From contig LBYG01000008.1 of assembly GCA_000996085.1 (NCBI GenBank), positions 1 through 49,050 on the forward strand: a DNA stretch of 49,050 bases, read 5' to 3'. Positions 3,968 through 25,390 of this stretch are shown in pieces. The notes beneath the pieces were generated by a model, which worked only from the letters and a program-made list of their open reading frames with translations, searched no databases and was not told the origin of the DNA. This DNA is from Parcubacteria group bacterium GW2011_GWB1_40_14. GTDB lineage: Bacteria > Patescibacteriota > Minisyncoccia > Terrybacterales > GWB1-40-14. A program made the position numbers and the translations under genes. How positions within the stretch are numbered: the stretch's first letter is position 1; each line of letters opens with the position of its first letter.

Positions 3968-4102
3968 TCAACCCCGCACTTATTTTACGGTATAAGTTAA
4001 TAGTTTTGGAGTGTCGCAACACTCCAAAACTTCTACAACAGCAGTAAGCATTTCAGTTTAAACTTGTTTCTATAATTCTCTGTAAAATAGGTGCGGGGTC
4101 AA
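3968..4102. mobile_element. 127-bp MITE (CCCCGCAC...GTGCGGGG) with TCAA target duplication, copy 1
   Basis: Terminal IRs, internal hairpin gttttggagtg...cactccaaaac, TCAA on both sides, near-identical inverted copy at 6214-6348. Confidence 0.85.
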
Positions 4103-4194
4103 CCCCCCCTATTTACTGTGGAAATTAATCGTTGACCATACGAAAACCGCGTGATAAATGAAAGTTAATCAGATACTTTACACTTTGGTGCAAA

Positions 4195-4473
4195 ATGAAA
4201 CCGGGTATAAGCACCATTCAAACGCCTTATATATTAGTACAAGATGAGAACGATCCAAGAAACGGCCAAATCGCCATAGTTTTGGGAATCAAAACAATTA
4301 CACCTACTGACGGCAAGGGCTATCAATGCCTTTTAATAAAATTTTCCGATTGGGAACATCAATATGTTCCGCTATCAGAAATAATCGGTGTAGCAGAAAA
4401 CCCAAAGTATCATCTGCTCTCTCCGGAAGAAATTTACGAATTTAAAACAAAACCGCCCAGCCCTAAAAATTAG
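4195..4473 (+). CDS. Hypothetical protein
   Basis: 92-aa ORF behind a TTGACC...GATAAA/TAAAT promoter-like region. The stop codon lies inside a palindromic repeat arm. Confidence 0.6.
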   Translation: MKPGISTIQTPYILVQDENDPRNGQIAIVLGIKTITPTDGKGYQCLLIKFSDWEHQYVPLSEIIGVAENPKYHLLSPEEIYEFKTKPPSPKN

Positions 4474-4493
4474 AGCCGGACGGTTTTTACTTG

Positions 4494-4526
4494 CCCAGCT
4501 CTAATCCCTAGTGGATTAGGGTTGGG
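4494..4526. repeat. cccagctctaat...attagggctggg palindrome family; further copies near 4456, 6831, 10839, 13047, 15738, 19179, 20717, 23938, 24664
   Basis: Recurrent imperfect inverted repeat with a conserved mismatch. This copy is flanked by TTG and abuts TTGACA at 4527. Confidence 0.85.
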
Positions 4527-4597
4527 TTGACAAAATGATATATTTATGATACGATATTAATTACAACGTACTTTTACCGCATTCGGGAGGATACCTA

Positions 4598-4714
4598 ATG
4601 TTTGGTTCAACGCGTCGCAACGGCATGATCCGAAGGGTCATCCGCCTCAACGGCAAACTCTTCGGCTTCAAGCCTCGTCTCATCCCTGTTCCAATCCCGG
4701 TCACAAACCGCTAA
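4598..4714 (+). CDS. Small basic 38-aa peptide MFGSTRRNGMIRRVIRLNGKLFGFKPRLIPVPIPVTNR
   Basis: Own promoter TTGACA-17-TACGAT (4527-4555), SD GGGAGG, terminator 4721-4770. Too short for the ORF track. Confidence 0.7.
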   Translation: MFGSTRRNGMIRRVIRLNGKLFGFKPRLIPVPIPVTNR

Positions 4715-4839
4715 ACAAATGGCTCCGATAATTCGCCTCCGTCAGTTGACGGATGGCGAATCGGAGCCTTTAACTTTTTATGAACAGGATTGTGTTATTA
4801 TAAGCATTATTGTAATATATGACTTGTTAAATAAGCTTT

Positions 4840-4913
4840 GGGCGCGTAGCTCAGTTGGCTAGAGCACTTCACTGATAATGAAGAGGTCCTTGGTTCGAGT
4901 CCAAGCGCGCCCA
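4840..4913 (+). tRNA. tRNA-Ile(GAT)
   Basis: Acceptor stem gggcgcg/cgcgccc, anticodon arm cttca-ctGATaa-tgaag, T-arm ggttcgagtcc. CCA not encoded. Confidence 0.95.
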
Positions 4914-4936
4914 CCCTTCGACAAGCTCAGGGTAAA
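4914..4936. repeat. REP-like 23-24-nt unit (c/t)ccttcgacnnnctcagg(g/a)taaa; copies at 627, 18740, 18826, 18967, 24143, 33128-33215, 33536, 40270, 41338, 46360
   Basis: Recurrent motif seen in both orientations. Confidence 0.85.
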
Positions 4937-4973
4937 CCGATCTAAATGCCCCGCAAAGCGGGGCACTTGAATA

Positions 4974-6204
4974 ATGATCTTCAAAAAAGCTTCTGAAAAA
5001 ATTAATACATTCATACCCAAAGAAGCATTGTTGCTTTCCGGACTTATTTTTTTAAGTTATGTTCTTGGTCTTGTGCGCGACAGAATATTTGCGCGTACTT
5101 TCGGTTTAAGTTCCGCGCTTGATGCGTACAACGCGGCATTTATTTTACCCGAACTGTTCATTGATGTTCTAATAAGCGGGGCTTTGGGCGCCGCGTTCAT
5201 TCCGCTCTTTGTAGAAATTTACAAAAAAGATAAAGCGCGCAGCGAAGAATTTGCAAACACCACCATAACCTCTGCTGTGCTTGTAATGATAATAGGCGCC
5301 GCAGTATTAATATTGTTCGCGCCCAAAACCGTTTCTTTAATAGTTCCCGGATTTAACGCTGAAAACCAGTTGCTCTATTCAAATCTGCTCAGAATAATGG
5401 CGCTATCCCCTATAATTTTCGCGTTATCTATATCTTTGGGAGAAATTCTGGTGGCAAAAAGACAATTTTTATTCTATGGCCTGGCGCCGATACTTTATAA
5501 CTTCGGGATAATTTTGGGCACAATAATATTAAGCCCAAAGATAGGAATTTTTGGCGCGGCCATAGGCAGTATTTTGGGAGCATTGCTTTATCTTGCCATA
5601 CGGCTATTGGGAATATTTAGATCCGATTTCTCACTTAAGCCGGCATTTAATATAAAAATGCCGGAATTCCGCAAACTTTTGGTTCTTATGTTGCCCAAAA
5701 TGTTTGGCCATCCGATAGAGCCTCTTACGTTTTTGTTCTTTACCGCAGCAGCCAGTAGAATAGGCAGCGGGGACATAAGCGCGATAAGTTTCGGCCGCAA
5801 TTTCCAAAGCGTCCCCGTGGCGCTAATTGGCATAGCTTTTTCTATAGTTGTTTTTCCTCGAAAGGTTTTTTGGAGGAGGAGAATTTACCCAAGAAGCCAT
5901 ACAAAGAACTTCGCTGATACTTGGATTCTTTTCTATTTCGATACCGCTTGAAAGCTTATCGCATCTTTTAAGCCGTGCTTTTTTTGCCACCAAAAACACT
6001 TTCATCCCGGTTTGTGCCGCTTTTGCGGGATTGCTTACTATAGTAATAACAACAAATTATCTCTCGCCTACTTTGGGCATAATTGCTTTGCCGATAGCTT
6101 TTGCCGCAGGAACCGCAACAAAAATATTATTGCTTGGCGCAATATTGCCTCTACGCGTACGTTTTATACGTAAAAACTCTTTACTTGACGTAGCATCGAT
6201 ATAA
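4974..6204 (+). pseudogene. murJ: Lipid II flippase MurJ/MviN, split by a frameshifting internal deletion near 5858 (real or assembly error)
   Basis: LGLVRDRIFARTFG, DAYNAAFILPE, GALGAAFIPLF in one frame; LLSRAFFATKNTFIP in a second frame. About 405 aa in total, short for MurJ. Confidence 0.8.
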
Positions 6205-6213
6205 AAAGATGGG

Positions 6214-6348
6214 TTGACCCCGCACCTATTTTACAGAGAATTACAGAAATAAGTTTAAACTGAAATGTTTACTGCTGTTGTAGAAGTTTTGGAGTGTCGT
6301 GACACTCCAAAACTATTAACTTATACCGTAAAATAAGTGCGGGGTTGA
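6214..6348. mobile_element. 127-bp MITE with TTGA duplication, copy 2 (inverted)
   Basis: Reverse complement of copy 1 with a few substitutions. The right TTGA is the -35 of TTGATA-17-TATAAA. Confidence 0.85.
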
Positions 6349-6405
6349 TATTTTTTTATAATAAAGCTATAAAACACTGTTGTTTGAAATACAAAAAGGA
6401 GAAAG

Positions 6406-6813
6406 ATGCGTCCGGTTATCTTTACGAATTCGGATATTAAAGGCGCCACTGTGCGCTCACGAGTTAGCAGAGAAACATATGTATTCGATCCTTCAAAACC
6501 GGCTGATTTCCGCAGAACAGAAGTTTCCCGGGGCCGCTATGGCGTACTCAATGGCAATATAATTGTCTTGCTAAAAGACAACGAAAGCGAAGAGCCTTAT
6601 AGAAAGCTTGCTTCAGAAAGCCACGCTCTGCGCGATCTGCTTACAAGTTCCGAAGCTTTAAAATCTCTTAATATTCCTCCATTCCAACGCAACCAAGGAA
6701 ACGCAAAACTTTTTCATGGCTCTCGCATGTTGCTCGGGATCAACTGGGAGTTCTGGGACGAATCCCGCGAATGCGCTCATTTAATATCTTGGCTTGAATT
6801 GATTACAAGCTAA
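6406..6813 (+). CDS. Hypothetical protein
   Basis: SD AAGGAG, promoter upstream, bidirectional terminator 6824-6869. Confidence 0.7.
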   Translation: MRPVIFTNSDIKGATVRSRVSRETYVFDPSKPADFRRTEVSRGRYGVLNGNIIVLLKDNESEEPYRKLASESHALRDLLTSSEALKSLNIPPFQRNQGNAKLFHGSRMLLGINWEFWDESRECAHLISWLELITS

Positions 6814-6883
6814 ATAAAAAAACAAACCCGCCCAGCTCTAATTACAAAAATTAGGGTCTGGACGGGTTTTATTATTAATATTT

Positions 6884-7777
6884 TTAAGTATTTACGTTTC
6901 CTCCTGATGCGCCCGGCCTATTTGCCGCAACTTCCCTAACTTTTGCTTTCCCTTCCTCACCTTGAGGCTCAGAAAGTTCTTCCAAAACGTGAATAGAACT
7001 AACAAGACTCTTTGCTAAGGCAGTAACGCCGGCGACAACTTCGCCTATCTCGTCAGTGCCGTCATAAATAGGAACATCATAATCCCCCTTCATAATTTTC
7101 CTGATACTGACGATAATTTTATGCAAACGCCTGATAATAACTCTGTACAAAATAAATAGATTAATCGCGTAAAAGATCAGGAAACCTACTATGAACAAAA
7201 TCGCCATGCGCACACTAAAATCTGCCAAAATTTCGTTCACCGAGTCAAGCTTCCAATAGCTGGCTACCACACCGACAACCTCTTTATCCCAGGCAAATTT
7301 AATCGGCACATAAATTTCTGCAAGCTCCTTAAAACCTTTTTCACTTACCTCGTGCTCTTGTTTAAGTTTAGTAAAATCAACGACAACCGCGTCTTTCAAA
7401 GCTTTTTGGTATTCCTCATTATTTTCGTATTTATTACCTATTATGCTTGGGTCATCGGAATAAATTATACGTCCGTTCTTATCCCAAACCTTGATACGAA
7501 CCAAACTATTTTTTGGGATAGCGGCCAGAAAATCTTCAAATTTTTCCTGTGACGCGTCGGAAAGTACGAAATCTTCAGCCGTAAAAAAACTTTGCGCGTA
7601 ATAATTGATAAACGAAACAACGCTGTTTTTGGTATGAACTATAAAAACCTCACGCGTATAATGCTTAACAAATATAAAAACCAAAGCCCCGAAAACTGTG
7701 AACATCAGAATAGTCGGGATAAAAAGTTTTATATATATTGAGTTAAACCTAAGCAGGTGGGATTTCAAATCGCTCAT
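6884..7777 (-). CDS. Membrane sensor protein: TM, Cache-like extracellular domain, TM, HAMP; no output domain
   Basis: RIKVWDKNGRIIYSDD and EIYVPI Cache-like motifs; HAMP-like GDYDVPI..DEIGEV. Confidence 0.8.
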   Translation of the reverse strand: MSDLKSHLLRFNSIYIKLFIPTILMFTVFGALVFIFVKHYTREVFIVHTKNSVVSFINYYAQSFFTAEDFVLSDASQEKFEDFLAAIPKNSLVRIKVWDKNGRIIYSDDPSIIGNKYENNEEYQKALKDAVVVDFTKLKQEHEVSEKGFKELAEIYVPIKFAWDKEVVGVVASYWKLDSVNEILADFSVRMAILFIVGFLIFYAINLFILYRVIIRRLHKIIVSIRKIMKGDYDVPIYDGTDEIGEVVAGVTALAKSLVSSIHVLEELSEPQGEEGKAKVREVAANRPGASGGNVNT

Positions 7778-7860
7778 AGACTACATTATACCAAAAATAT
7801 AGGCAGCAAACCAACCTGGGCAGATTTACTGCGCCGGAAAATTGTTGATAAGCTTAAATT

Positions 7861-7896
7861 CATACCAGGTAGTAGAACAAGTTCACTACCTGGCAT
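7861..7896. mobile_element. Short 30-bp ACCAGGTAGTAG...TCACTACCTGG element with CAT duplication
   Basis: cat-[accaggtagtagaacaagttcactacctgg]-cat. Confidence 0.75.
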
Positions 7897-7901
7897 AAAA
7901 A

Positions 7902-9185
7902 TTAATATCTGCGTCGTTTTTTCTGATGCCCGCTGGCTCCGCGAGGATAGAATGAACGGTGAGAATTATTTGTCCGCCCGCGACTAGCGCCCGCATAGCT
8001 TCTATTGGCAGGATATCCGTTTTGAACGCTATGGCTTAAAACCCTTTCCGGCGGCAACTCCGGAAGTTCCGATATTTGCAAGTTTTTTCTGATAAGACGC
8101 TCTATGTTGCGTATCTCCCGTTGTTCTTCGGGCAAAACAAAAGAAATGGCATGACCCGCTGCTCCGGCTCTGGCTGTGCGCCCGATGCGATGAACATAGT
8201 CTTCGGATTGCATAGGAAGGTCATAATTTAACACCAGCTCTATTCCTATAACATCAAGGCCTCGCGCGGCAATATCTGTGGCAATAAGTACGCGATATTT
8301 TCCGGATTTAAAACCATCCAAAGCATCTCTGCGCTGGTTTAGGGTTCGGTTTGAATGCAATTCGGCTGCGTCATAGCCCATCGCGCGAACAACGCGGGTT
8401 ATACGTTTTGCGGTATGTTTTGTTTTTGTAAAAACAAGAGTTGAACCTTTATATTCACCGAGAAGTTTTTCAAGAAGCCTGGTCTTTGCGTCTTTTCTCA
8501 CTATAAAAATCTCCTGCGTTACTAGATCTGAAGTTGTGCCCGATGGCGCGATCTCAATACGTATCGGCAATTTCATATTTGAAGAAGCAATGGTCATTAT
8601 ATCCGGCGGCAGGGTCGCAGAAAAAAGCATCGTCTGGCGCTCGCGAGGTACCGCATAAAGTATTTTTTTGATCTGCGGAAGAAAACCCATATCCAACATC
8701 CGGTCGGCTTCATCTAAAACAAGAACATTTACTGTATCCAATTTCACTGCTTTTTGTTCAAGATGGTCAATTAATCTGCCGGGTGTTGCGATAATAATAT
8801 GCGGGTTGCGTGCAAGAGCTTTAAGTTGCGGACCGGGCGAGGTGCCACCTATTAAAACCGCGGTTTTCAAACCAAGAGAGCCTCCTATTTTATGTAACTC
8901 TTCATCAACCTGCATAGCCAATTCACGCGTAGGAAGAACTACTAATCCTCTGCCTTTTTTATGCGCCAACGACTGTATCATCGGTATGCCAAAAGCCAAA
9001 GTTTTACCGGTACCTGTTTGGGCAATGCCTACAACGTCTTTACCCTCAACAGCAATCGGAATAGCCTGACGCTGTATGGGTGTGGGCGTTACAAAACGCA
9101 TCCGTGCTAAAATTTCTAAAATACCCGGAGCTATCCCGAGACCGTGAAAAGAAGATGTATTGGTGGTATTAAACTTAGATTCCAT
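7902..9185 (-). CDS. DEAD-box RNA helicase (RhlE-like)
   Basis: AQTGTGKT, PTRELA, DEADRM, SAT, ARGLD, YVHRIGRTAR. Start placed at MESKF, 6 nt after TACGAT. Confidence 0.95.
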   Translation of the reverse strand: MESKFNTTNTSSFHGLGIAPGILEILARMRFVTPTPIQRQAIPIAVEGKDVVGIAQTGTGKTLAFGIPMIQSLAHKKGRGLVVLPTRELAMQVDEELHKIGGSLGLKTAVLIGGTSPGPQLKALARNPHIIIATPGRLIDHLEQKAVKLDTVNVLVLDEADRMLDMGFLPQIKKILYAVPRERQTMLFSATLPPDIMTIASSNMKLPIRIEIAPSGTTSDLVTQEIFIVRKDAKTRLLEKLLGEYKGSTLVFTKTKHTAKRITRVVRAMGYDAAELHSNRTLNQRRDALDGFKSGKYRVLIATDIAARGLDVIGIELVLNYDLPMQSEDYVHRIGRTARAGAAGHAISFVLPEEQREIRNIERLIRKNLQISELPELPPERVLSHSVQNGYPANRSYAGASRGRTNNSHRSFYPRGASGHQKKRRRY

Positions 9186-9292
9186 GTCCGAATCGTAACA
9201 CCAGTTATCTGACCTCACAAGCTATTCTCTTTTTTATAATATAAAACCTCCTCAATTAATTATCGAGGAGGTATTATTTATTGTCACGGATT

Positions 9293-10594
9293 TTATTGCA
9301 TAGTTTCGGGTGAGAGAGGACGCGGAAGAGGAACTATCTGGTTAGTACGCTGATCTATAATTTCTTTGGCCAAGGGAATAACTACCGTGTCTGTATTTAA
9401 CCCGGCAATCGGATTTGTAACTTTAAAAATTAACGCGCGTACTAACAATTCCTTATTATCTATGCCGTCATAGACCCACATTTTTATATAGCCTTGAGAC
9501 GGCGCGCTAAGCTCAACTTCCACCTCTTTCACATTCTCTTCATATCCATACCAATACTGGTTTGAAGCATAATCAAGTAATTTCTGTAAATTTTGCTCGG
9601 CATCATACGAAGAACTCTCGTAATGCTGAACGTCCAGACCGTTTAAATTACTGACTTTTCTTTCCCGTAAATTTACGCTCACAAAAAGACCGCTTGGCCG
9701 GCCGTCTTCTCCGTAAACAATCTCTCCGTTAATTTTAAGCGGATAAACAACCTGAACTTCCTCGGATATGTATGGCATTATCGGCATAGAACTAGAACTT
9801 GAGGGTTCGTCGCTGTTTACCATGGTTGCAATATTGTCGTATCGAATTATTTGCGGGTCCGCATAATTATTATGCGCAATACCGTAATCATTTAAAAAAC
9901 TCTCGGCAATATTTTTTATCTCTTCATCGCCGGGCACATCGCCGGCAACAAGCGGTTCCTGCGGCGGACATCCGTTCATGCATTGCTTAGCATATGGCCA
10001 AGTTTTCCAATTTTGAGAAAGCGATAACGTTCCTTCAGATGGGCTTACCCATACGGTATATCCGGAATCTCTATTTTCACTGAATGAAAAGGATTCTAAA
10101 CCCACATCACGAAAAGCAGATAAATTTATTGCTCCCGACAAAAATGTGGATAGCGCATTCAATACTTCACTTGTGGCCACGTTACCCTTTATGCGTTTCA
10201 ATACACTAATTTGTGCCGGAATTTCTATGGGTTCGCCCTTATATACGTATTTGTATATTGTAGGTTCGTAACGAAAGCCGTCAGGATACGTCGGACCAAC
10301 AACGCCACCTCCACCATAACCACCAGCGCCCATCCCCAATGGACCGGGAGGAGTTGCAGTAATCGGTGAAGAAGCAAGCCTGTCTTTGGATTCGCCCTGA
10401 GATGTTCCCGAAACCGCAGCAAGTGAGCCAAAAGCTTTTGAGCCGACTGTGCTTATTTCAAATGTAGAAGTTCCTGATGTGCCAATATTTGAACCTCCCG
10501 GAGAAAAAATATTATTCTGTATTAAAAATACTCCGCCTAAAATAACTAAAATTATTAAAACGACTCCCCCGCTCGCTAAAATAAATTTTTTCAT
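9293..10594 (-). CDS. Membrane-anchored surface protein of unknown function
   Basis: N-terminal TM helix, Gly/Ser/Pro-rich linker, long acidic ectodomain. Confidence 0.8.
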   Translation of the reverse strand: MKKFILASGGVVLIILVILGGVFLIQNNIFSPGGSNIGTSGTSTFEISTVGSKAFGSLAAVSGTSQGESKDRLASSPITATPPGPLGMGAGGYGGGGVVGPTYPDGFRYEPTIYKYVYKGEPIEIPAQISVLKRIKGNVATSEVLNALSTFLSGAINLSAFRDVGLESFSFSENRDSGYTVWVSPSEGTLSLSQNWKTWPYAKQCMNGCPPQEPLVAGDVPGDEEIKNIAESFLNDYGIAHNNYADPQIIRYDNIATMVNSDEPSSSSSMPIMPYISEEVQVVYPLKINGEIVYGEDGRPSGLFVSVNLRERKVSNLNGLDVQHYESSSYDAEQNLQKLLDYASNQYWYGYEENVKEVEVELSAPSQGYIKMWVYDGIDNKELLVRALIFKVTNPIAGLNTDTVVIPLAKEIIDQRTNQIVPLPRPLSPETMQ

Positions 10595-10901
10595 AAGCAA
10601 AAAGGATTTGCCGAGTGTATGCCTGAAGATGCTTTTGTTTAAATCGCTTAATCCGCAAGCTTAAATTTAAGCTCCTGGCGGTAACGCGAGTCTAAAAACA
10701 GTTTCAGGGAGGCTTTAACAAATACTCTATTATTTTATCATATATTATAATCAAAATCCGCCGTTTATACCTCTTTTTTATAAATTAACCTTCTATTATA
10801 TACTACGAAACCCGCCCAAAAAGGTAACAAAAATACCGCCCAGCCCTACCCAGCTCTAATTCTTAATTAGGGCTGGGTTAGAGCTGGACGGTTAAATATT
10901 T

Positions 10902-11435
10902 TTATTCCTGTCCTGATCTGACATCAACCTGATACTGCTCACGTAAACTATCTGCCATCTCCTTTGTCCCGCCGATAATTTCAATATCGTAGGGATAAGC
11001 GTACTGCGCACGATACCCTTGTTCATGCTCAATTACATTGCCCCACAAAGAAACCTTACCGATAGCGAAACACTCGCGCGGTTTTTCCTGAGCGCTGCCT
11101 TTTATATGAGAAAAAGTAACCTGCCACTGAACAGGAAACTTTCTCTCGCGCTGCATATATTTGCTCGCGTCTTCTTCGCTCTTAAAGGCGTGAATGCCGC
11201 ATTCGCAATAAAAATACGGGGCTGCATGAGGCACTTCAATAATTTTACTGTCAGAATTGAACCAACAAAGCCTGTCGGCAGCCATGGCAATACGATAGGG
11301 CCATGCTACATACATATAAAGCGGGGAAATTAAAATATATTTTCCATAAACCCAATGCTCATTTTCTATGGCGGTTATAACCCGCCAAACTTTCCAGGCA
11401 TAAATAGGCTCAACAAGGATCTGTTTATCGGACAT
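10902..11435 (-). CDS. CxCGIHA / GxVSLWG-E-GYRAxYAYP family protein, paralog 2 (possible ART-like fold)
   Basis: Motifs PIYAWKVW, HAAPYFYCECGIHAF, GKVSLWGNVIEHEQGYRAQYAYP. SD GGAG precedes MSDKQ. Confidence 0.8.
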   Translation of the reverse strand: MSDKQILVEPIYAWKVWRVITAIENEHWVYGKYILISPLYMYVAWPYRIAMAADRLCWFNSDSKIIEVPHAAPYFYCECGIHAFKSEEDASKYMQRERKFPVQWQVTFSHIKGSAQEKPRECFAIGKVSLWGNVIEHEQGYRAQYAYPYDIEIIGGTKEMADSLREQYQVDVRSGQE

Positions 11436-11508
11436 TAATAAATCTCCGATTTTTAAAAGACGTTGCCATAAGCATATCAAAACCGGAACAAAAACAAAAG
11501 CCCATCAA

Positions 11509-12093
11509 TTAGTGATGAGCTTGTGATAATTCTATTCTTGTATCAACCTGATACTGCTCACGTAACGAATCGGCGATACGACGATCGTCAGCAAGTACTG
11601 TTAGATCATAGGGGTAAGCATATTCGGCGCGATAGCCATCTTCACCTTCAATAATTTCGCCCCATAAAGAAACTTGGCCAAAAACCGTGCAACCCATTAT
11701 GCGATCGGGCAAAATACCTCGCTCGTTAGCACTAACAACAGTCCAAGGCTTAGCTGGATCCATTTTCATCCCAGTAAAATAATTAAATAGCTTTTCTTTT
11801 GTACGCAGGGCATATATACCGCACCTGCAATAAATATCAGGAACTTGATGTTTAAAACCAATCAAATGAACCGATACTTGCCTATTGCTGGATTTCGCCA
11901 GAGATGAGACAAGCGCGAAACAATCAGCTTTCAACGTTATACGCGGTTTCCATTCTGTATGTTTGCTAACAGCTCTTAAACGATAAACAATATCATCGGA
12001 GAATAAGTTAAGTACGGCAACGGCTTGCCACATACGCCAGGCAATTATCGGCTCTTCTGAAACAACGTGCGGCAATACCTTGGATTTGCTCAT
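11509..12093 (-). CDS. CxCGIYA family protein, paralog 1
   Basis: PIIAWRMW, HQVPDIYCRCGIYAL, GQVSLWGEIIEGEDGYRAEYAYP. ATGA overlap with the upstream peptide. Confidence 0.8.
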   Translation of the reverse strand: MSKSKVLPHVVSEEPIIAWRMWQAVAVLNLFSDDIVYRLRAVSKHTEWKPRITLKADCFALVSSLAKSSNRQVSVHLIGFKHQVPDIYCRCGIYALRTKEKLFNYFTGMKMDPAKPWTVVSANERGILPDRIMGCTVFGQVSLWGEIIEGEDGYRAEYAYPYDLTVLADDRRIADSLREQYQVDTRIELSQAHH

Positions 12094-12287
12094 GCTTGCC
12101 CTGAGCCGTTCGGCACTGAGCTCACGGCCGAAGTGCTAGTCGAATGGGCCGGAACTTTCTCAGGCACTTTAGCCGGAGGTGTGGGCTCGCGCACCGGGGC
12201 GGGATCGGGAAACTTGGGTAGAGGGGTCGGAATCGGCACAGATTTAGGGTTAACAGTAATACGTCTTTTGGGCTTACCTATTTCCAT
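12090..12287 (-). CDS. 65-aa Pro-rich peptide (MEIGKPKRRITVNPKSVPIPTP...)
   Basis: SD GGAG 7 nt upstream, 4-nt overlap with the next gene, GC-rich coding island. Confidence 0.75.
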   Translation of the reverse strand: MEIGKPKRRITVNPKSVPIPTPLPKFPDPAPVREPTPPAKVPEKVPAHSTSTSAVSSVPNGSGQA

Positions 12288-12392
12288 CTTATTGCTCCAT
12301 ATATTTTCAATTTTCTGCTTATGTTTTTTATAAACCAAATTGCTCAAAAAAACAATAGAAAAAACGACTTACTTAAAGTAAGTCGTTACCTT

Positions 12393-12767
12393 TTAACTAA
12401 AACTTTCGTTGAGAAGTTCATTTATTACCTTCTTTAATTCTTCGGTTCTGTTTTCTTTTACCAGTTCAAGAGGACTTTTACCAAAAAATACTTCTTTGGG
12501 TTCACGCAACCATTTTCGTATATAACGCTGTTCTACAATTTCAGAAAGTAAACGGCAAACGTCGTAAAGATAATCTATACGTACGCGCGCTTCAACCACC
12601 AAAACGTTATATCTCTCGCAATTGCGAATTGCGCGGACAGACACGCCGGCGGCAGAAGAAATATCGCGATAGCTAAGGAAACATTCCCGACGCAAAGCAG
12701 AAATTTGCTTACGGGCTTCATGCGTTTGCGGCAATTCTATGGACAATTTGCACACCCTCCGCCACAA
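12393..12767 (-). CDS. Xre/MbcA/ParS-type antitoxin (HTH plus toxin-binding domain)
   Basis: HTH LSYRDISSAAGVSVRAIRN; C-terminal WLREPKEVFFGKSPLELV. Confidence 0.75.
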   Translation of the reverse strand: MWRRVCKLSIELPQTHEARKQISALRRECFLSYRDISSAAGVSVRAIRNCERYNVLVVEARVRIDYLYDVCRLLSEIVEQRYIRKWLREPKEVFFGKSPLELVKENRTEELKKVINELLNESFS

Positions 12768-14673: not shown

Positions 14674-14726
14674 TTAACATGCCTCCTTTTCAAAGAACCT
14701 GAAAATGCCTGACGCAGAGCTTAGTT

Positions 14727-16285: not shown

Positions 16286-16414
16286 AACAATTATATTCTA
16301 TCACCTACTCCGCTCGTATAAAAATAAATTGTTCCTGCAAGCATCGCGTCTGTCTAAGCGACCCAGCACCAGAACAAGTACGGTACTGGGCAGGCGCCGC
16401 GGAAGAAATTTTAT

Positions 16415-16944: not shown

Positions 16945-18476
<1,532 letters not shown>

Positions 18477-19013
18477 ATGATAAATGTGATTCCGACGCAA
18501 AGGTCGGGCGTGCGAACAGAATTTAAGAAAACAAAATCATTTTTTAGAGTCTCATGCAAACCTGGTGCTTGCATAAGACGCTAATCCCAAGTTATTTACA
18601 CGGGAATAGCGAGAAAGAATTAATTATGCTCAAAATAAAACGATGTAATTTATTGGATAAATAAATTATTACTTGCGTTAATGTCCTAACAATGACATTA
18701 ACTGCAGTGTTAAAATTTCAATGTTCTTTCTTTTAACAACCCTTCGACTTCGCTCAGGGTTATTTTTCGCAACTTATAATAAAACTTATTACTGAAGCGA
18801 AAAACAAGACGTGGTTTTGAAAAATCCTTCGATAAATTCAGGATAAATAAAACCGGGAAGACGTCTCTCGCTGTCATGACAGCCGCCTTCCCGGTCTTAC
18901 GACACTAGGAATTGGTTTATTAGACGTCTTGTTATTATTGCTACATATTTTTTAACGCATCGTCCATCCTTCGATAAACTCAGGATAAAAAACTCATTCT
19001 CCGATGCGTTAGA

Positions 19014-19043
19014 AGTATATACCCTGGCAACAAAGGGTGTCAA
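19014..19043 (-). promoter_or_regulatory. Probable 16S rRNA promoter TTGACA-18-TATACT; boxA-like GAACATTGAAA at 18716-18726
   Basis: Near-consensus sigma70 elements upstream of the rRNA leader. Confidence 0.6.
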
Positions 19044-19177
19044 CCCCTACACCATTTTTGCGTCAATAATATCGTAGATACCAATATTTAACCTTTAAAC
19101 GATAATGCAAAAGTTTTGGAGCGTTGTAACGCTCCAAAACCACTAGCTCATTCTGCAAAAACTGGTGTGGGGGTCAA
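19040..19177. mobile_element. MITE with TCAA duplication, copy 3 (CCCCTACACC...GGTGTGGGGG subtype)
   Basis: Same internal gttttggag/ctccaaaac hairpin; close copy at 21510. Confidence 0.85.
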
Positions 19178-19296
19178 GCCCAGCTCTAATTAAGAATTAG
19201 GGCTGGGCAAGTCCACCCTAATACACTTGACGAAAACAATAATTAATGTAATTATAATAATAACTTTTCTTCGAAAACCTTGTGCGTGAGGCAGCG

Positions 19297-19992
19297 ATGA
19301 ATATTCGAGCTGTAATACACGACTTTGATGGGGTCTTAAACGACTCCTTCCATGAAGGTTTGCGCAGAATACGAAACATATGCGCAACCTTTGAAGTTAA
19401 CTTTACTCCTGTTCAGCGCAAAAAGCTGACACAACTTTGGGGCATACCCGGAGAAAAATTGCTGCAGCGGGGACTTGATGTTTCCCCTGCCATGGCCAGA
19501 CGACTATATGCGGCATGGGAACGGCTTGATATTGCCGACCCTATACCTCTCGTTCCCGGAACAAAAGAACATTTGTTCTGGCTTCGGAGAAATGGTTTCT
19601 GCGGTGGGCTTCTCACATCACGAAACCGCCCGAACATTGAATCCATTTTTGAAGAAATGGATCTGATGCGCGAATTCACGGTCATATCTACAAAACAAGA
19701 AAGCCCTTACAGCAAACCCGACCCGAGAGTTTTTGACTATATCCTTGGAGAATTCAAAAGTCTCTGCGGGATAACCAAAGAAGAATGTATCTTTGTCGGT
19801 GACACGCCGGCGGACATGAAGGCCGGACACGAGGTCGGCATCGAAACCATTCTTGTGCAAACGGGTCCGTATCTGCTCAGGCACGCTGCAGAACTGCCCA
19901 TTCCACTTGAAAATGTCTTGAATTCAATTGACGACTTGCCTCTTTGGATAGAAGAACATCACAATGGCGAGATAAAACATCCGTACATTTAA
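19297..19992 (+). CDS. HAD-superfamily hydrolase (phosphoglycolate phosphatase-like)
   Basis: DFDGVL, LTSR, KPDP, FVGDTPADM. Confidence 0.9.
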   Translation: MNIRAVIHDFDGVLNDSFHEGLRRIRNICATFEVNFTPVQRKKLTQLWGIPGEKLLQRGLDVSPAMARRLYAAWERLDIADPIPLVPGTKEHLFWLRRNGFCGGLLTSRNRPNIESIFEEMDLMREFTVISTKQESPYSKPDPRVFDYILGEFKSLCGITKEECIFVGDTPADMKAGHEVGIETILVQTGPYLLRHAAELPIPLENVLNSIDDLPLWIEEHHNGEIKHPYI

Positions 19993-20028
19993 AATAAAAA
20001 ACCGCGATTTTAAAATCGCGGTATTATT

Positions 20029-20652
20029 TTATTTAACGACAGCACCTGTTTCATCAATAGATTTATTTTCGTGTACGACAGACAGAGCTTGATAGTACCA
20101 AAACCAAGCGTCTTTGTGCCCTCCTGTAAGAGAAAGTAGATGCGCAAATTCATGCGCAAGAAGATCTTCCAATCCTTTATCAGAACTCTTCATCATGTGG
20201 ACTCCCACAAGTATGCACGAATTGTCCCAAGCCATACCATCAAAAAGCTGATGAAAATCGGCCCAACTTATGCGCAAAGGAAGTATTTCTTCATCAAGCC
20301 AACCGTATTTGCGAGCGTAAGCTATATAGGCGCAGAGAGTATTTTCCACAAGCAATGCTCGCTTATTCCAGGCTTGATTGCCTGTATCAAAAATAACAAC
20401 TTCAGTATGGTCTGAGATTTGAGCTTCGGCTATAAAATAAAAACGTTCTAAAGTTTTGCGATGTACCAAAAGACCAGAAAATTTTCTGAATAACTTCAAA
20501 AAAATTCCCGTAAGAAAAATATCAGCAATTAATATAACCGCCAAAACATTAATAACCGTTTTAAGGTCTATATTAAATATTGGTAATGAAAACCCAAGCA
20601 CGGCGACCAGATAGCCATCTTGCAACATCTCATTTGCCCGCTTAGCTTTCAA
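20029..20652 (-). CDS. Membrane-anchored HExxH (SprT/YgjP-like) metalloprotein; start uncertain
   Basis: LLAHEFAHLL...GGHKDAWFWYY; N-terminal TMs. Confidence 0.65.
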   Translation of the reverse strand: MKAKRANEMLQDGYLVAVLGFSLPIFNIDLKTVINVLAVILIADIFLTGIFLKLFRKFSGLLVHRKTLERFYFIAEAQISDHTEVVIFDTGNQAWNKRALLVENTLCAYIAYARKYGWLDEEILPLRISWADFHQLFDGMAWDNSCILVGVHMMKSSDKGLEDLLAHEFAHLLSLTGGHKDAWFWYYQALSVVHENKSIDETGAVVK

Positions 20653-20842
20653 AAAGCTTTAGCTCTATCGTATACCATTTGATAAACATTTGTAAAATTT
20701 AACCAAAGAAAAACCGCCCAGCTCTACCCCACCCTAATTTCTATCGAAGTCTGTTAAATTTAAAAGCGTATTGTTTTACCAATACGCTTATTTTATCTGA
20801 TAAATTATTAAAATTAGAGCTGGGTAGGGCTGAACGGTCTAT

Positions 20843-21448
20843 TTATTTGGGAAAATCTATCGGGCTATTGAGAAGAATATCTTTGCAAGCCGCATAGTAA
20901 AATTTAAATTCCTCACCATGCACATCACTTTTAATATCGCATACCAGAAGATGCGCGCATTCATGAGACACCAAGTCATCGATTTCTTGTCGCGTATCTC
21001 CCATTACGTTAATCGCAAAAACTATACTTGATCTATCTTCTTTGGAATGCTTTTCTCCATCTTCGCGCATAGCAATGCCGCCGTACCACTTCATAGGATA
21101 AGTGCCAACACGCACCGGAAGACAGGAAACATTACATATCAAACAAAAATGAGCAGTAGACATTATCTGTTCGACGCGTCTAACTATATATTCGGCACGG
21201 CCATTCCAAAAAAAATTGTTTGGTTGATAAGCAATAACTTCGGTGTCTTTTGGAATATCCATATTCATAAGCGTGTTTAGGGCAAAATCCTCAACCGCAA
21301 TAAATTCATCTTCCCTTTCTTTTCTTATTTTCTTAAAACCTTGAGACCGCAAAGAAAATGTAAGATTCTTTTTCAAAGAATATCCCAGAGCGCCCAATAA
21401 TAAACAGATCAAAAGAATATTTATCAGAACTGTCCGATACTCGTCCAA
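20843..21448 (-). CDS. Membrane-anchored HExxH (SprT/YgjP-like) metalloprotein, paralog
   Basis: LVSHECAHLL...VHGEEFKFYY; N-terminal TM. Confidence 0.65.
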   Translation of the reverse strand: MDEYRTVLINILLICLLLGALGYSLKKNLTFSLRSQGFKKIRKEREDEFIAVEDFALNTLMNMDIPKDTEVIAYQPNNFFWNGRAEYIVRRVEQIMSTAHFCLICNVSCLPVRVGTYPMKWYGGIAMREDGEKHSKEDRSSIVFAINVMGDTRQEIDDLVSHECAHLLVCDIKSDVHGEEFKFYYAACKDILLNSPIDFPK

Positions 21449-21509
21449 TGGACCGTTCCTTTTTTAAGAACTGCTTGTTGTTGGTATAATATAACGAAAT
21501 TAATTAAAT

Positions 21510-21651
21510 TCAACCCCCACACCATTTTTGCGACAAGAATATTCGTAGATACCAATCTTTTAACCTTTAAACAATAATGCAAAAGTTTTGAAGTGTTACA
21601 ACACTCCAAAACCAATAGCTCGCTCTGCAAAAACTGGTGTGGGGGGGTCAA
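21510..21651. mobile_element. MITE with TCAA duplication, copy 4
   Basis: Close to copy 3; TCAA at both ends. Confidence 0.85.
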
Positions 21652-21692
21652 ATCTCGTAAAAATAAAACCGCCCTTTTGAAAAGACGGTTAT

Positions 21693-22352
21693 TTAAATTA
21701 AAATGCCTTCCTGATAAAGCGCGGCTATAAGTAACCCTTTGTCAGAATTTAATTCGAACATTTTTTCTTTTACTTCTTGCGCTGTTAAAGCGCGGGTTTC
21801 GCCAAACTTATCGTTCACGCGATGAAGTGCGTCATAAACATCGGCTAAAGCTACAACACGCGCGCAATCCAAGATAAGCAACTTGGTGCTTTCAGAATAC
21901 TTGTGAAGTTTTGATGGAAGACGTTTGGGATACCCGTTGTTCTGAAAACGGTGATGCTGAACTATAACATCTGCCGTGAAATCAAACTTGCCGCGCAACA
22001 TCCGCCATGACGCATTAACATGTTTGCGCAATTCATGCATATCTTCCGGTGTCCAACCCGAAATCTTACCCAGGCTCAAAGGCGAGACTTCACATTTACC
22101 GATATCGTGCAATGCTCCCGCAATAAATAACGGTTTCTGCGGCATATAAATAAATTTACCGATATCTGCTGCCAAAATAGCTACACGCAAGCAATGTTCG
22201 TAATGCAATTCAGTTATTTCGTTCTTTTCTTTTAATCTCTTAAGTAAATCTTGAATGCTTTTTGAGTCTTCTTCTGTAACACCCAATGCTATAGACCGTA
22301 TGTTAAAGTCTGTTTCAAGTCTGAACAATTTATAGTCTTTGAAAGTAGACAT
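21693..22352 (-). CDS. HD-GYP-like phosphohydrolase
   Basis: HCLRVA, LHDIGK, KHV, QHHRFQNNGYP, ADVYDAL. Confidence 0.85.
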   Translation of the reverse strand: MSTFKDYKLFRLETDFNIRSIALGVTEEDSKSIQDLLKRLKEKNEITELHYEHCLRVAILAADIGKFIYMPQKPLFIAGALHDIGKCEVSPLSLGKISGWTPEDMHELRKHVNASWRMLRGKFDFTADVIVQHHRFQNNGYPKRLPSKLHKYSESTKLLILDCARVVALADVYDALHRVNDKFGETRALTAQEVKEKMFELNSDKGLLIAALYQEGILI

Positions 22353-22585
22353 ATTGCTGCTCCGCATCAGTTTTAAAAGAACACCTACTTCATACCGCAA
22401 CAAAAAGAAAAATTCAACCAATTAAAAATCCGCCTAAATACTTAGCAGATAAAAATTATTTAGCTCTGTTAGAAAAAATATACTTGAGAACAACGTAGGA
22501 GCCGACAAGAATAACCGTATACCTTTTTAATGGTTCTATTTAAAAACTATCGTGGCTTATATATAAATATCAATGCGTTATTTTC

Positions 22586-23131
22586 TTACAATCGCAGTCC
22601 CAAATGCATGAAGCCCAGCATGAGCGCAGAAATAGTTTGAGCATCTCTTATTTTTTTATCCCGTATCATTTGCGCGATTGTTTTGAGATTGAATGCACGA
22701 ACGGCAACTATAGCCTCATCCGGCAAACCTGCTTGCTTCACTTTCTTCAATTTACGCGCAATATAAACATGTTCTACGCCATTTGAAATACCGCCTAACA
22801 TTTGAAAACTGCCCAACTTATTCCATTGCGCCGCTTCATATCCGGTTTCTTCCCATAATTCTCTTTTTGCCGCAGGAAGAAGCGCTTTGCCGTCAGAACT
22901 GCCTCCAGGCAATTCCCAGGAATATTTCCTTACCGGATAGCGATATTGCCGTATTAACATTATTTCTTTTTTATCAGTTACGGGCAGAACAATTACCGCC
23001 GGCATTACAGATACAAAATTATATATTCCCTTGGCACCGTCGGGCCGGATAACGCGGTCTTCGATTATATTAAAACGCGAATGAATATAGGTTTTGCGCG
23101 TAGATATTTTTTTCCAATTATATTTTGACAT
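22586..23131 (-). CDS. NUDIX hydrolase (ADP-ribose pyrophosphatase-like)
   Basis: RQYRYP, WELPGG...AAKRELWEETGY. Confidence 0.9.
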   Translation of the reverse strand: MSKYNWKKISTRKTYIHSRFNIIEDRVIRPDGAKGIYNFVSVMPAVIVLPVTDKKEIMLIRQYRYPVRKYSWELPGGSSDGKALLPAAKRELWEETGYEAAQWNKLGSFQMLGGISNGVEHVYIARKLKKVKQAGLPDEAIVAVRAFNLKTIAQMIRDKKIRDAQTISALMLGFMHLGLRL

Positions 23132-23163
23132 ACTTATTTTTTATATCTATTACAACTATATTT

Positions 23164-23850
23164 TTAATGCTTTTCCCGCCACGCCTTTATACTTGCGTGG
23201 TTACCGCCCAGCAAAACTCCTGGGACGATCCATTTAATCTTTTTATTTTTAGGATTAGGGTAAAAAATTTCGGGGCGAGTATATTGCGGATACTCCCCTT
23301 CTTTATCTTTCAGTGAAAACGATTCTTCCTTCAACGAATCTTTATTGCCCAATATTCCGGAGACCATTCTTGAAACAGAATCTATAATCGTTAAAGCCGG
23401 CAATTCCCCTCCTGATAAAACGTAAGGACCGACAGAAACTTCTTCGTCAGCAATATATTTAGCAACACGTTCATCCACGCCTTCGTAACGTCCGCATATT
23501 AAAATTAAATTCTCGTATTTTGATAAACGCTTGGCGTCTTGCTGGGTAAATTGTTTCCCTTTGGCGGAAAATAATATTATTCGTGTTTTGGAATTTGGAT
23601 TTTGTACTTTGAATTTCCGCGCGGTGACCGAGTTCACTGCGCGGTATATAGGCTCAATTTTCAACAACATGCCTGCCCCGCCGCCGTAAGGCTTTTCATC
23701 CACTGTGTGATGCCTATCCTTTGTAAATTTCCGGATATCAACGGTTTTAACCGAAATTTTCTTATTTTTTATAGCACGCGCCATAATAGACTCGCCCAAA
23801 TAAGGCGAGAACATATCCGGAAAAATTGTTAGAATAGTAAAACGCAACAT
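23164..23850 (-). CDS. trmD: tRNA (guanine37-N1)-methyltransferase
   Basis: PYGGGAGM, CGRYEGVDER, YVLSGGE, YPQYTRP. Confidence 0.97.
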   Translation of the reverse strand: MLRFTILTIFPDMFSPYLGESIMARAIKNKKISVKTVDIRKFTKDRHHTVDEKPYGGGAGMLLKIEPIYRAVNSVTARKFKVQNPNSKTRIILFSAKGKQFTQQDAKRLSKYENLILICGRYEGVDERVAKYIADEEVSVGPYVLSGGELPALTIIDSVSRMVSGILGNKDSLKEESFSLKDKEGEYPQYTRPEIFYPNPKNKKIKWIVPGVLLGGNHASIKAWREKH

Positions 23851-23881
23851 ATAATTTATATTATATCATTAAAGAATTATT

Positions 23882-24067
23882 TTAGGACTTATGCGCTTGG
23901 CTTTTTAAGCGGTTTTTGAGGTTGTTTTGGCATGGTTCCAGCTCTAATTTAATAAATTAGGGCTGGACAAAATAGCCGACCTGCTCCGACAGAACGTCGG
24001 AGAACCTCGGAGCGCTTCGCTGGAAGCGCGAGAATGAGCGAAAAAAGAGCAAGCGCATAGGTCCTAA
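23882..24067. mobile_element. Multi-stem structured element, copy A (copy B at 34861-35000)
   Basis: Terminal IR ttaggacttatgcgcttg/caagcgcataggtcctaa; junction motifs shared with copy B. Confidence 0.7.
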
Positions 24068-24179
24068 TAACATAAAAGCCCCAAATTATCCGTAAGGATA
24101 AGAGGGGCTTTTAAAAAATCTATTAAAATCTTACAGTTTCAACCCTTCGATAAACTCAGGGTTGCTGTAAAGCTAAACT

Positions 24180-24515
24180 TTACAGCTTTAGTTCGTCGAC
24201 TACACTCTCAACATCTTGAGAGGATGCCGCACGCATTCGATCGGGGCGAGGGCCTCGTCCACCTTCCGGCTCGTCGATCTTGAGATTTACACGAGCGTTG
24301 TTGCGCATGCCTACAATACGAAGCAATGTGCGGATGGATTTGGCAGTGCCACCGTTGCGGCCAATGATCTGACCCATATCTTCTGGGTTCACTTTGAGAG
24401 TAAGTAATACTCCCATTTCATCAACCTTGCGATCTACACTGACGTCGTCAGCGTGATCTACGATCGAACGCACTACGTAATCGAGAAACTGCTGATCATG
24501 GTGTTTTTCGGCCAT
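24180..24515 (-). CDS. khpA: KH-domain RNA-binding protein
   Basis: DMGQIIGRNGGTAKSIRTLL; located between rpsP and trmD. Confidence 0.92.
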   Translation of the reverse strand: MAEKHHDQQFLDYVVRSIVDHADDVSVDRKVDEMGVLLTLKVNPEDMGQIIGRNGGTAKSIRTLLRIVGMRNNARVNLKIDEPEGGRGPRPDRMRAASSQDVESVVDELKL

Positions 24516-24756
24516 ATCTTTGCAATCTGATTAACAGTAAAAAATAATTTTCATTGAAATGACTGTCGACCAATTTCCTCCTTCGCACAAGGCTTGGGAT
24601 TACACTGCAGCCATTCATCCAAATTTCTATGCAGTATTATATCAAATATTTAAAATAAGTCAACCCAGCTCTAATTTTATACCTAGAAAATACAACCTTA
24701 CCCAGATTATGTTTTCGATTTAGAAATCTTATCTAAATAACAAATTCTTTACAAAA

Positions 24757-25212
24757 TTAGGGTTGAGCTTCTTCTTTAACTTCTTCTGCGGATGGTTCAG
24801 CTTTTATTTCTTCAACTTCAACAGGAACTTCTTCACTTACAACTTCTTCTGCTTGCGTCTCCTCTGCAACTTCAACTTTAGGGGTTTCAACAACTACTTC
24901 TTGCGCTACCGGCGCCGCAGCTTCAACAACCGCTTCTTTAACCGGTACGGCATGCTTATGATTTTGTATTTTCTTGCCTTCAATTACTTTTGAAGAGATC
25001 AATAAATTATGAACGGTTGGAGTAGGTTTTGCGCCCTGAGATATCCAGTAAAGAACTCTTTCATTATCAAAAGCCACGTTGCCACGCTTAACATCATAGG
25101 TACCTACCTTCTCCATATATTTTCCGCGAGGCGGGCCTTTCTTCTCGGTCACAACAACACGAAACGATGGATCGTTCCTGCGGCCGACTCTTTGTAGTCT
25201 TACAATCAACAT
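24757..25212 (-). CDS. rpsP: 30S ribosomal protein S16 with acidic C-terminal extension
   Basis: RLQRVGRRNDPSFRVVV, YWISQGAKPTPTV. Confidence 0.97.
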   Translation of the reverse strand: MLIVRLQRVGRRNDPSFRVVVTEKKGPPRGKYMEKVGTYDVKRGNVAFDNERVLYWISQGAKPTPTVHNLLISSKVIEGKKIQNHKHAVPVKEAVVEAAAPVAQEVVVETPKVEVAEETQAEEVVSEEVPVEVEEIKAEPSAEEVKEEAQP

Positions 25213-25254
25213 AAAATATAACGAATTTTAGTTTAACGTTATGAATTAAGGGTG

Positions 25255-25390
25255 TCAACCCCGCACTATTTTTACGGAACTTATATATAGCAAGGCTTCA
25301 ATCAAAAACGGTTGCGCCACTGCAAAAGTTTTGGAGTATTGCTACGCTCCAAAACTGTTAATTCGTTTAGTAAAAATAGTGCGGGGTCAA
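25255..25390. mobile_element. MITE with TCAA duplication, copy 5, on the rpsP -35
   Basis: ccccgcacta/tagtgcgggg IRs; the left TCAA is part of TTGACA-17-TAAACT. Confidence 0.85.

Follow-up and report, generated by a model that had tools for sequence, protein, structure and literature searches.

Short inverted-repeat elements in register with -35 boxes in the genome of a Parcubacteria group bacterium

One contig of Parcubacteria group bacterium GW2011_GWB1_40_14 carries five copies of a short inverted-repeat element, here termed family A, each abutting the TTGA of a -35-like hexamer. How does a family of small elements come to lie in single-base register with promoters? The window analyzed is this complete contig of 49,050 bp (C8), which belongs to an assembly of 944,541 bp in 38 contigs (~40% G+C; completeness 92.8%). 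Family A is a family of MITEs (transposable elements of the miniature inverted-repeat type), i.e., of non-autonomous DNA transposons, and its promoter register extends across the genome and is shared by other element families, including some in other genomes of the same class. This pattern would follow if insertion genuinely favored the upstream edges of -35 boxes, and we regard the chances that this is so as evenly poised. Public sequencing runs with near-identical window DNA are groundwater and soil metagenomes, with no RNA run among those listed.

Family A elements are 127–135 bp long and contain no open reading frame (ORF); all 10 full copies have terminal inverted repeats of ~20 bp, and the centre is a perfect hairpin with a 13-bp stem. 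The termini start with CCCCGCAC... or with CCCnCACACC..., which distinguishes two subfamilies, and both ends present ...GCAAAAATGGTGTGGGG to the adjoining TTGA, whichever the orientation. Folded as RNA, the copy upstream of the 16S rRNA gene (c3) is predicted to form one long hairpin in which the terminal repeats pair (-56.3 kcal/mol, z -7.05). An nhmmer profile built from the copies and run on the whole genome recovered 10 full and four partial copies on eight contigs: five full copies in the window (c1 to c5, Table 1), one each on C14, C1, C4, C16, and C7, and partial copies on C12 (two, one of them cut by the contig end), C9, and C7. The window contig, 5% of the assembly, holds 5 of the 14 copies. 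Identity from copy to copy is 72–96%, the highest value being that between c1 and c2 in inverted orientation. When c3 was compared by BLAST with 60 genomes of the same class (G001 to G060; 61 genomes counting its own), there was no match outside its own genome; family A is therefore lineage-specific among the genomes searched.

A 4-bp direct repeat, TTGA or TCAA, flanks 10/10 full copies (with one mismatch in the C16 copy), and in the window these repeats lie where the initial annotation, made from the letters of the window, had placed them. Once the copies are oriented by their internal sequence, the repeat reads TTGA in four and TCAA in six, a variation that the same annotation had described for the five window copies and that holds genome-wide. 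Because the repeat varies relative to internal orientation, it is a target duplication and lies outside the element. The empty site that the initial annotation had called for was found among orthologous alleles (L048, L049, and L050) obtained by a protein-anchored scan of metagenome contigs. In L050, a relative at ~78% identity, the 16S rRNA site reads ...GGGC followed by a single TTGACA-18-TATACT with no element, and the window has the same promoter together with the element and a second TTGA; the 4-bp duplication is therefore real. Copy c4 is present in both L048 and L049, two near-identical contigs, and c3 in one of the two. In four runs, the Logan contigs covering 3500–23499 break inside the MITEs, and none of the 15 joints listed (of 180) skips a MITE, so that the insertions appear to be fixed in the sampled strains.

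Terminal inverted repeats, a target duplication with an empty allele, and small, non-coding, dispersed copies identify family A as a MITE. It is very improbable that these sequences are instead immobile, namely structural or regulatory palindromes tied to promoters, formed where they now stand or disseminated by recombination between promoters. The lack of a detected transposase would fit such an origin, as would the end of a second type of element (B-type, described below) that is identical across families of the class and could mark a binding site for a host protein. Against this, the 4-bp direct repeats vary in sequence, filled and empty alleles differ exactly by the element plus one repeat, and the copies occur in both orientations, beside unrelated spacers, and also at start codons and elsewhere; the empty allele largely refutes the idea.

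Each window copy adjoins exactly the -35 and -10 hexamers, at exactly the spacing, that had been listed initially (Table 1); the element leaves the core promoter intact and stands in place of the DNA immediately upstream of the -35, again as had been claimed. Genome-wide, 14/14 family A copies point at a gene or an RNA, with the gene start 28–95 nt downstream in 11 of them. The remaining three point at the 16S rRNA, point at the RNase P RNA, or stand stacked behind a family B element that itself sits on TTGACA-17-TATAAT. The distance from c3 down to the 16S 5' end (Rfam) is 567 nt, and that from c5 down to the gene for ribosomal protein S16, rpsP (Pfam), is 46 nt. On C7, the promoter bearing the family A copy has its -10 followed, 7 nt on, by the 5' end of the RNase P RNA (29972–30562; class A in Rfam at 136 bits), which places the predicted transcript start no more than 1 nt from the Rfam 5' end. 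The spacers between -35 and -10 are unrelated in sequence among the copies. Across the genome, TTGAC[AT] is paired with a -10 at 61% of its sites in intergenic DNA vs. 19% within genes, and thus this combination behaves like a genuine promoter signal here. Judged by their hexamers, their spacing, and the conservation of the 16S and rpsP hexamers in relatives, the flanking sites look like promoters of the sigma70 type.

The association was quantified against 1567 intergenic TTGA sites outside family A, where "intergenic" rests on gene calls from a crude ORF-based model (936 genes, 83.5% coverage) and a -10-like hexamer is at least a 4/6 match at 16–18 nt, a lenient threshold. TTGAC occurs at 12/14 family A copies (18% of the background sites), TTGAC[AT] at 10/14 (10.8%), and a -10-like hexamer at 13/14 (27.8%). 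The combination of TTGAC[AT] with a -10 is found at 10/14 copies vs. 6.6% of the background (binomial p 1.2e-9), and at 7/10 when full copies alone are counted (p 5e-7). The genome-wide census that the initial annotation had suggested as a check thus puts the copies far above background. Among TTGAC[AT] sites themselves, the -10 is present at 10/10 family A sites vs. 103/170 others (p 0.008). The copies without TTGAC, c2 and c4, each have a 5/6 match to the -10 and a gene 61–65 nt off, a configuration seen at 19/1285 background sites.

The register is also visible when elements are sought by their ends. An element-type GGG end precedes 22 of 113 promoter-like TTGAC[AT] sites and none of 67 that are not promoter-like (Fisher p 1.5e-5, a count that admits a GGA end for two family A copies; p 0.0019 with family A left out). 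A screen for TTGA on both sides of a 14-nt inverted repeat returned 19 candidates, 12 of them with CCC...GGG ends, and TTGACA follows 8 of these 12 vs. 0/7 of the others. A family-agnostic screen for repeated 24-mers upstream was dropped as too noisy in A/T-rich DNA.

For an insertion-site preference, the following course of events is proposed. Integration would be concentrated on the first four bases of sigma70-type -35 hexamers, where a 4-bp staggered cut would duplicate TTGA. The promoter-side TTGA together with the old flank would rebuild the full -35/-10 core, and the element would take over the upstream (UP) region in either orientation. The -35 edges would then be hot spots, hit repeatedly by several related families in several species, from which selection would subsequently purge harmful insertions. 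The cue could be promoter-bound sigma factor or RNA polymerase, the geometry of promoter DNA, or a G-run/TTGA junction supplied by a resident element. With regard to the targeting by promoters or RNA polymerase that the initial annotation put forward, the promoter association held up, in this genome as a whole and in others of the class; direction of the insertion by RNA polymerase or a promoter-bound factor would be a further, conjectural step.

The same pattern could in principle be left by survival. On that account, insertion is broad with a weak T-K-R-A (mostly TTGA) preference and, in so compact a genome, nearly always harmful, so that a copy lasts only if its duplication restores the signal it interrupted, be it the TTGA of a -35 or the TG of a start codon; we consider this possible, if rather unlikely. 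The test of it relies on the intergenic zone upstream of 58 predicted promoters, which has a mean length of 103 nt and contains 1.29 further TTGA or TCAA sites per promoter. Insertion at TTGA followed by selection predicts ~44% of copies at a -35, yet 10–12 of the 14 are found there (p 0.03–0.0015); the test is suggestive rather than decisive because the zones may be partly constrained by terminators or divergent promoters. Survival would also leave unexplained why 0/67 intergenic TTGAC[AT] sites outside promoters are occupied, why second elements stack exactly at TTGA, and why other repeat families persist at other intergenic places. Indeed, since a family of ~45 copies and dozens of small palindromes persist elsewhere between genes, the genome tolerates insertions away from the -35. 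In its favor, a single principle would cover family A at -35 boxes and family B at start codons, and the duplications of B-like elements vary (TTGA, TGGA, TGAA, TAAA, and others). Moreover, the lack of orientation bias in family A is what a neutral position upstream of a promoter would give, the copies are old and fixed in all strains seen (72–96% mutual identity), and at rpsP a terminator adjoins the promoter and leaves little neutral DNA.

Several points weigh against a preference acting at insertion. Every insertion seen has already passed selection, the -10 criterion is lenient, and the "safe zones" of the upstream-zone test are as crude as the gene calls. At rpsP, where the upstream terminator almost touches the -35, the -35 edge may be the sole tolerated site in each species. 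A counter-example is a 62-nt CCCCGCAC-type mini element with a TTGA duplication that lies 4 nt downstream of a TATAAT -10 (C4 495–564); it is the second of two tandem CCCCGCAC-type elements at C4 330–570. A further point concerns family B (ends CCCCGTTAGAA..., ~125 bp, ~23 loci in this genome), for which 11 of 14 copies examined coincide exactly with a start codon and share a single orientation (Table 1). Because start codons are not defined by RNA polymerase, this placement means that selection can position elements to the single base. The alternative of survival bias that the initial annotation had itself raised is weakened by the upstream-zone test and the 67 empty sites but draws strength from the start codons.

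The start-codon copies of family B carry a duplication of TGAA in nine cases, TATG in one, and CATG in one. The upstream duplicate retains the original ATG; the downstream one, joined to the final base of the element, yields a GTG or ATG that opens a long ORF whose N-terminus is plausible. In several copies the old ATG begins a frame of 41–44 codons that crosses the element and ends no more than 6 nt from the new start or overlaps it. The same placement recurs in G012, a genome of a different family in the same class (A/TGGA, A/TGAA). An insertion that parts a start codon from its upstream region is hardly harmless, which counts against survival alone. Of the 630 ORFs with 150 aa or more (starts called crudely), 80 have a Shine-Dalgarno-like motif 4–18 nt upstream, and the 16S 3' end has the usual CCTCC tail; this scarcity may make insertion at start codons tolerable. 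Examination by eye gave no consistent -10 at the right distance for leaderless promoters in the family B flanks, and only poor -10 matches for an outward promoter inside the A or B ends.

The -35 edge is shared by further families, with the same GGGG/TTGA junction. Four families with unrelated inverted-repeat sequences hold this position; the window examples that had been noted at 4494, 24664, 30837, and 33607 do adjoin TTG-type -35-like hexamers. One of them, a B-like copy, lies on a TTGCAA hexamer and its duplication reads TTGC (Table 1); the register thus follows the position of the box and not its letters. Elements also stack: 5/14 family A copies adjoin another element end to end at TTGA. 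Copy c3 and the C1 copy adjoin intact family C palindromes, c1 and the copies on C4 and C7 adjoin end-like remnants, and the copy C7b adjoins a B element.

Palindromes of the family C type (29–41 nt, CCCAGCYCTAATT...AATTAGRGCTGGG) lie in the window at 4494–4526, 10820–10890, 13047–13076, 19178–19210, and 23936–23967, with ~50 further loci genome-wide and others in G001. Most have extended flanks (CTTG/CAAG, CCG/CGG) like hairpins of terminator or repetitive extragenic palindromic (REP) type, and ~9 adjoin TTGA, including one at C6 16056–16096 with a clean TTGA duplication.

Stacking raises the alternative that family A inserts at G-run/TTGA/C junctions of resident B, C, or D elements that mimic its own end, so that the promoter link is inherited from the first colonizer. 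This we hold to be unlikely. It draws on the family A copies that adjoin intact C palindromes, end-like remnants, or a B element, and on GGGTTGAC, which occurs at 33 intergenic sites vs. ~3 by chance (an estimate from base composition). GGG stands upstream of the distal TTGA in 6/10 full copies vs. 40/1567 background sites (p 5e-8), which is a further point on the side opposed to promoter recognition. On the other hand, c4 and the C14 copy have no upstream G-run, and in G012 the B-like first colonizers are themselves at -35 boxes with A/T-rich flanks, so that the question moves one step back.

The evidence from other genomes bears directly on this point. The junction GGGGTTGACW, counted against a reversed control, occurs 11 vs. 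0 times in the genome under study and is likewise in excess in many other genomes of the class, e.g., 16 vs. 0 in G012, 14 vs. 0 in G011, and 11 vs. 0 in G036. Of 15 readable GGGGTTGACW sites in G012, 12 belong to the termini of B-like MITEs; at 11 of these the partner repeat lies 65–137 nt upstream with TTGA before it, and a -10 matching at least 4/6 follows at 13/15 sites. A search blind to the flanks gave 75 exact B-type ends in G012 vs. 0 in the control. The first 30 of these are flanked by TCAA (7), TTGA (7), TGGA (3), TGAA (3), TCCA (2), TTCA (2), TAAA (2), or other tetranucleotides (4), and each of the 7 ends next to TTGA continues as TTGAC and has a -10 matching 4/6 or better. The G012 elements on TTGAC promoters have upstream flanks that are A/T-rich and not G-rich, and for at least one family the -35 association is therefore primary.

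The 11-mer B-type end is patchily distributed, occurring in 38 of 61 genomes (75 in G012, 32 in G001, 28 in G031, 27 in G004, 25 in G050, and none in many), and not a letter of it differs between families whose genes share only ~65–75% identity. To judge from these sequences, the identity suggests either horizontal spread or a conserved binding protein. A more far-reaching form of the preference would be a MITE superfamily spread across this class of ultra-small bacteria akin to the candidate phyla radiation (CPR), guided by the transcription machinery or by promoter geometry. Its transposase would cut at the upstream edge of the sigma-bound -35, and the start codon would serve as a second safe harbor where the duplication likewise rebuilds the signal. 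We put this forward tentatively and as rather unlikely. A contig filed as viral in IMG/VR (29,962 bp; L160/L161) has two B-like mini elements; it may come from a CPR phage or be host DNA that was misfiled.

Orthologous promoters show that occupation of the -35 edge recurs. G001 belongs to the same genus, with genes 64–75% identical and a 16S rRNA 94% identical; its intergenic DNA is too diverged to align, and its 16S contig stops before the promoter, yet it is still informative at rpsP. There, upstream of TTGACA-17-TAAACT, stand a whole B-like MITE, flanked by duplicated TTGA, and a small family C palindrome. In L050 the rpsP TTGACA has beside it an end fragment of ~20 nt from the other family A subfamily (A2-type), and the window has a copy of subfamily A1, so that three species hold three different elements at the same edge. 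The SprT-like gene gives a second case: L050 has the orthologous TTGATT-16-TATTAT with a 72-nt B-like element at the edge where the window has c4.

The presence of 16S rRNA, rpsP, and RNase P RNA among the occupied promoters might also reflect co-option, in which insertion is wide and copies are quickly lost by deletion unless they help, either as a hairpin that insulates the promoter from the gene upstream or through an A-tract ~10–15 bp upstream of the -35. The strong fold, the fixation across strains, and the identical sequence that faces the promoter from either end, whatever the orientation, would agree with a benefit of this kind. We nevertheless judge it decidedly unlikely, in view of the four families with unrelated inverted repeats at the same position, the L050 16S promoter that works without an element, and the L050 rpsP remnant, which indicates that elements decay in place. 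The likelihoods assigned to these explanations are not meant to sum to one, as insertion beside resident ends and co-option both overlap with the insertion preference and with survival.

The search for a mobilizing enzyme also counts against an insertion preference. The assembly contains no match to PF01609 (DDE_Tnp_1), PF01797 (Y1_Tnp), PF07282 (the zinc-ribbon domain of Cas12f1-like/TnpB proteins), PF00665 (rve), PF13358 (DDE_3), PF13546 (DDE_5), or PF00872 (Mutator), with DEDD families outside the search. An eighth Pfam family returned one tyrosine recombinase (C19:18339–18857), probably a housekeeping enzyme. The transposase with matching termini that the initial annotation had suggested looking for was thus not found across these eight families in the assembly. 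Its absence is weak evidence because metagenome-assembled genomes (MAGs) often lose repeated genes. Among the 61 genomes, neither DDE_Tnp_1 (3/61, none element-rich) nor rve (17/61) is distributed in keeping with element richness. An rve element examined in G041 was rejected as a partner: its ends are unrelated, and the adjacent CCCCGCAC mini-hairpins look like terminators. In a collection of genome contigs, the A-end pattern gave one chance match, in a Chloroflexia MAG. In IMG/VR, the B-end 14-mer gave 79 loci, which is about the chance level by a rough estimate; three had both end types, none had a transposase, and mini elements occurred on just one contig (the one with two, above).

Membership in known groups was considered in the same way. 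An origin from IS200/IS605 elements is ruled out by the long inverted repeats, the duplication, the 4:6 orientations, and the absence of Y1_Tnp and PF07282. REP sequences or bacterial interspersed mosaic elements (BIMEs) with a REP-associated tyrosine transposase (RAYT) are ruled out by the ~130-bp size, the duplication, and the absence of Y1_Tnp, and family C resembles REP sequences in form alone. For an IS4/IS5-type (DDE_Tnp_1) origin, the duplications are T-N-N-A-like, but PF01609 is absent here.

The nearest bacterial analogues are the Correia elements of Neisseria (CREE/NEMIS), which a review describes as MITEs of ~100–155 bp with long inverted repeats, mostly just upstream of genes, whose junctions join sigma70-type promoters (PMC10969869). 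Family A is likewise short and promoter-associated. Unlike the Correia element, which supplies promoter boxes, it was preceded by the host promoter (as the empty allele shows), the TTGA starts the host -35, and there is no sequence similarity. The Correia duplication is TA. Rickettsia palindromic elements (RPEs) lie in frame inside genes. Family B resembles them as a small element at a constrained position in a reduced genome, and differs in lying at the start codon with a rebuilt start (as family A differs in lying at the -35). RPEs are named in the same review (PMC10969869).

Insertion sequences (ISs) can carry outward -35 boxes and form hybrid (fusion) promoters, e.g., IS5 at fucAO (PMC11894529). 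Family A shares with these a mobile end beside -35 and -10 boxes and a changed upstream context. Hybrid promoters of that kind arise or are activated by chance insertion under selection, whereas family A lies as a whole in one register on pre-existing promoters. A narrow, repeated class of intergenic targets is a trait that family A has in common with ISs that reportedly insert into REP palindromes and with IS110/IS1111 elements, said to be guided by a seeker RNA; its target is a promoter box and not a palindrome, and the long inverted repeats and varying 4-bp duplications of the elements would better suit a cut-and-paste reaction of the DDE type. Among eukaryotes, the yeast long terminal repeat (LTR) retrotransposons Ty3 and Tf1 integrate at promoters through contact with the transcription machinery, by way of known tethering factors, and so spare coding DNA. 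As these are eukaryotic LTR retroelements, the likeness is an analogy for guidance by the transcription machinery and nothing further. The available portions of a 2024 review of prokaryotic MITEs and of a 2024 survey, together with literature searches, yielded no reported bacterial MITE or IS in register on -35 hexamers.

Should the preference operate at the insertion step, mobile DNA would have a novel route of survival in genomes with almost no spare DNA, and uncultured bacteria without transcript data would have a natural promoter marker, here for 16S rRNA, rpsP, and RNase P RNA. If survival alone is responsible, the elements would give a clean picture of selection shaping an insertion landscape to single-base register, at -35 boxes and at start codons. 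In both cases the elements stand where many strong promoters had their UP region, which may shape expression, and the identical ends across distant families of the class point to a mobilizing enzyme yet to be found or to horizontal spread.

Table 1. Elements and adjoining promoter-like sites; positions refer to the window unless a contig is named.
Feature	Position	Strand	Details
c1 MITE	TCAA 3968–3971, element 3972–4098, TCAA 4099–4102	-	CCCCGCAC-end subfamily
c1 site	3943–3971	-	TTGACA 3971–3966, 17 nt, TAGACT 3948–3943; ORF 3889–3515 starts 82 nt from the T of TTGA
Remnant of ~19 nt like a family A end	4103–4125		adjoins the distal duplication of c1; putative, identified by reading
c2 MITE	TTGA 6214–6217, element 6218–6344, TTGA 6345–6348	+
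c2 site	6345–6373	+	TTGATA 6345–6350, 17 nt, TATAAA 6368–6373; ORF start 6406
c3 MITE	TCAA 19040–19043, element 19044–19173, TCAA 19174–19177	+	CCCnCACACC-end subfamily
c3 site, upstream of 16S rRNA	19014–19043	-	TTGACA 19043–19038, 18 nt, TATACT 19019–19014; conserved in L050
c4 MITE	TCAA 21510–21513, element 21514–21647, TCAA 21648–21651	+
c4 site	21486–21513	-	TTGAAT 21513–21508, 16 nt, TATTAT 21491–21486; SprT-like ORF start 21448
c5 MITE	TCAA 25255–25258, element 25259–25386, TCAA 25387–25390	+
c5 site, rpsP	25230–25258	-	TTGACA 25258–25253, 17 nt, TAAACT 25235–25230; hexamers conserved in L050 and G001
Family C palindrome with -35 site	4494–4532	+	palindrome 4494–4526, then TTGACA 4527–4532, 17 nt, TACGAT
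Family C palindrome	19178–19210		stacked on the distal duplication of c3
Family C arm with -35 site	24658–24678	-	arm ending GGG, then TTGACT, 16 nt, TATAAT
B-like mini element with -35 site	30831–30875	-	39-nt element 30875–30837, then TTGATT 30836–30831, 16 nt, TATGCT
B-like element with -35 site	33601–33686	-	element 33681–33607, TTGC(A) repeats, on TTGCAA 33606–33601, 17 nt, TAATGT
Family B start-codon copies	C1 33953–34088; C33 11929–12065; C3 17219–17352 and 23469–23594; C4 12186–12307; C6 8643–8776
Family B start-codon copies	C27 1772–1907; C24 23964–24097; C11 8879–9007 and 21327–21458; C16 17816–17941

Two further features of the window stand apart from the -35 boxes. A separate repeat family, with ends ...CCAGGTAGTAGAAAT and ATTTTCACTACCTGG, is represented at 31276–31422 and 42334–42479 and has ~45 loci genome-wide, which do not lie at -35 boxes. 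The 16S rRNA gene (16946–18476) stands alone, with no 23S or 5S rRNA gene in the window, and ORFs resume ~265 nt past its 3' end.

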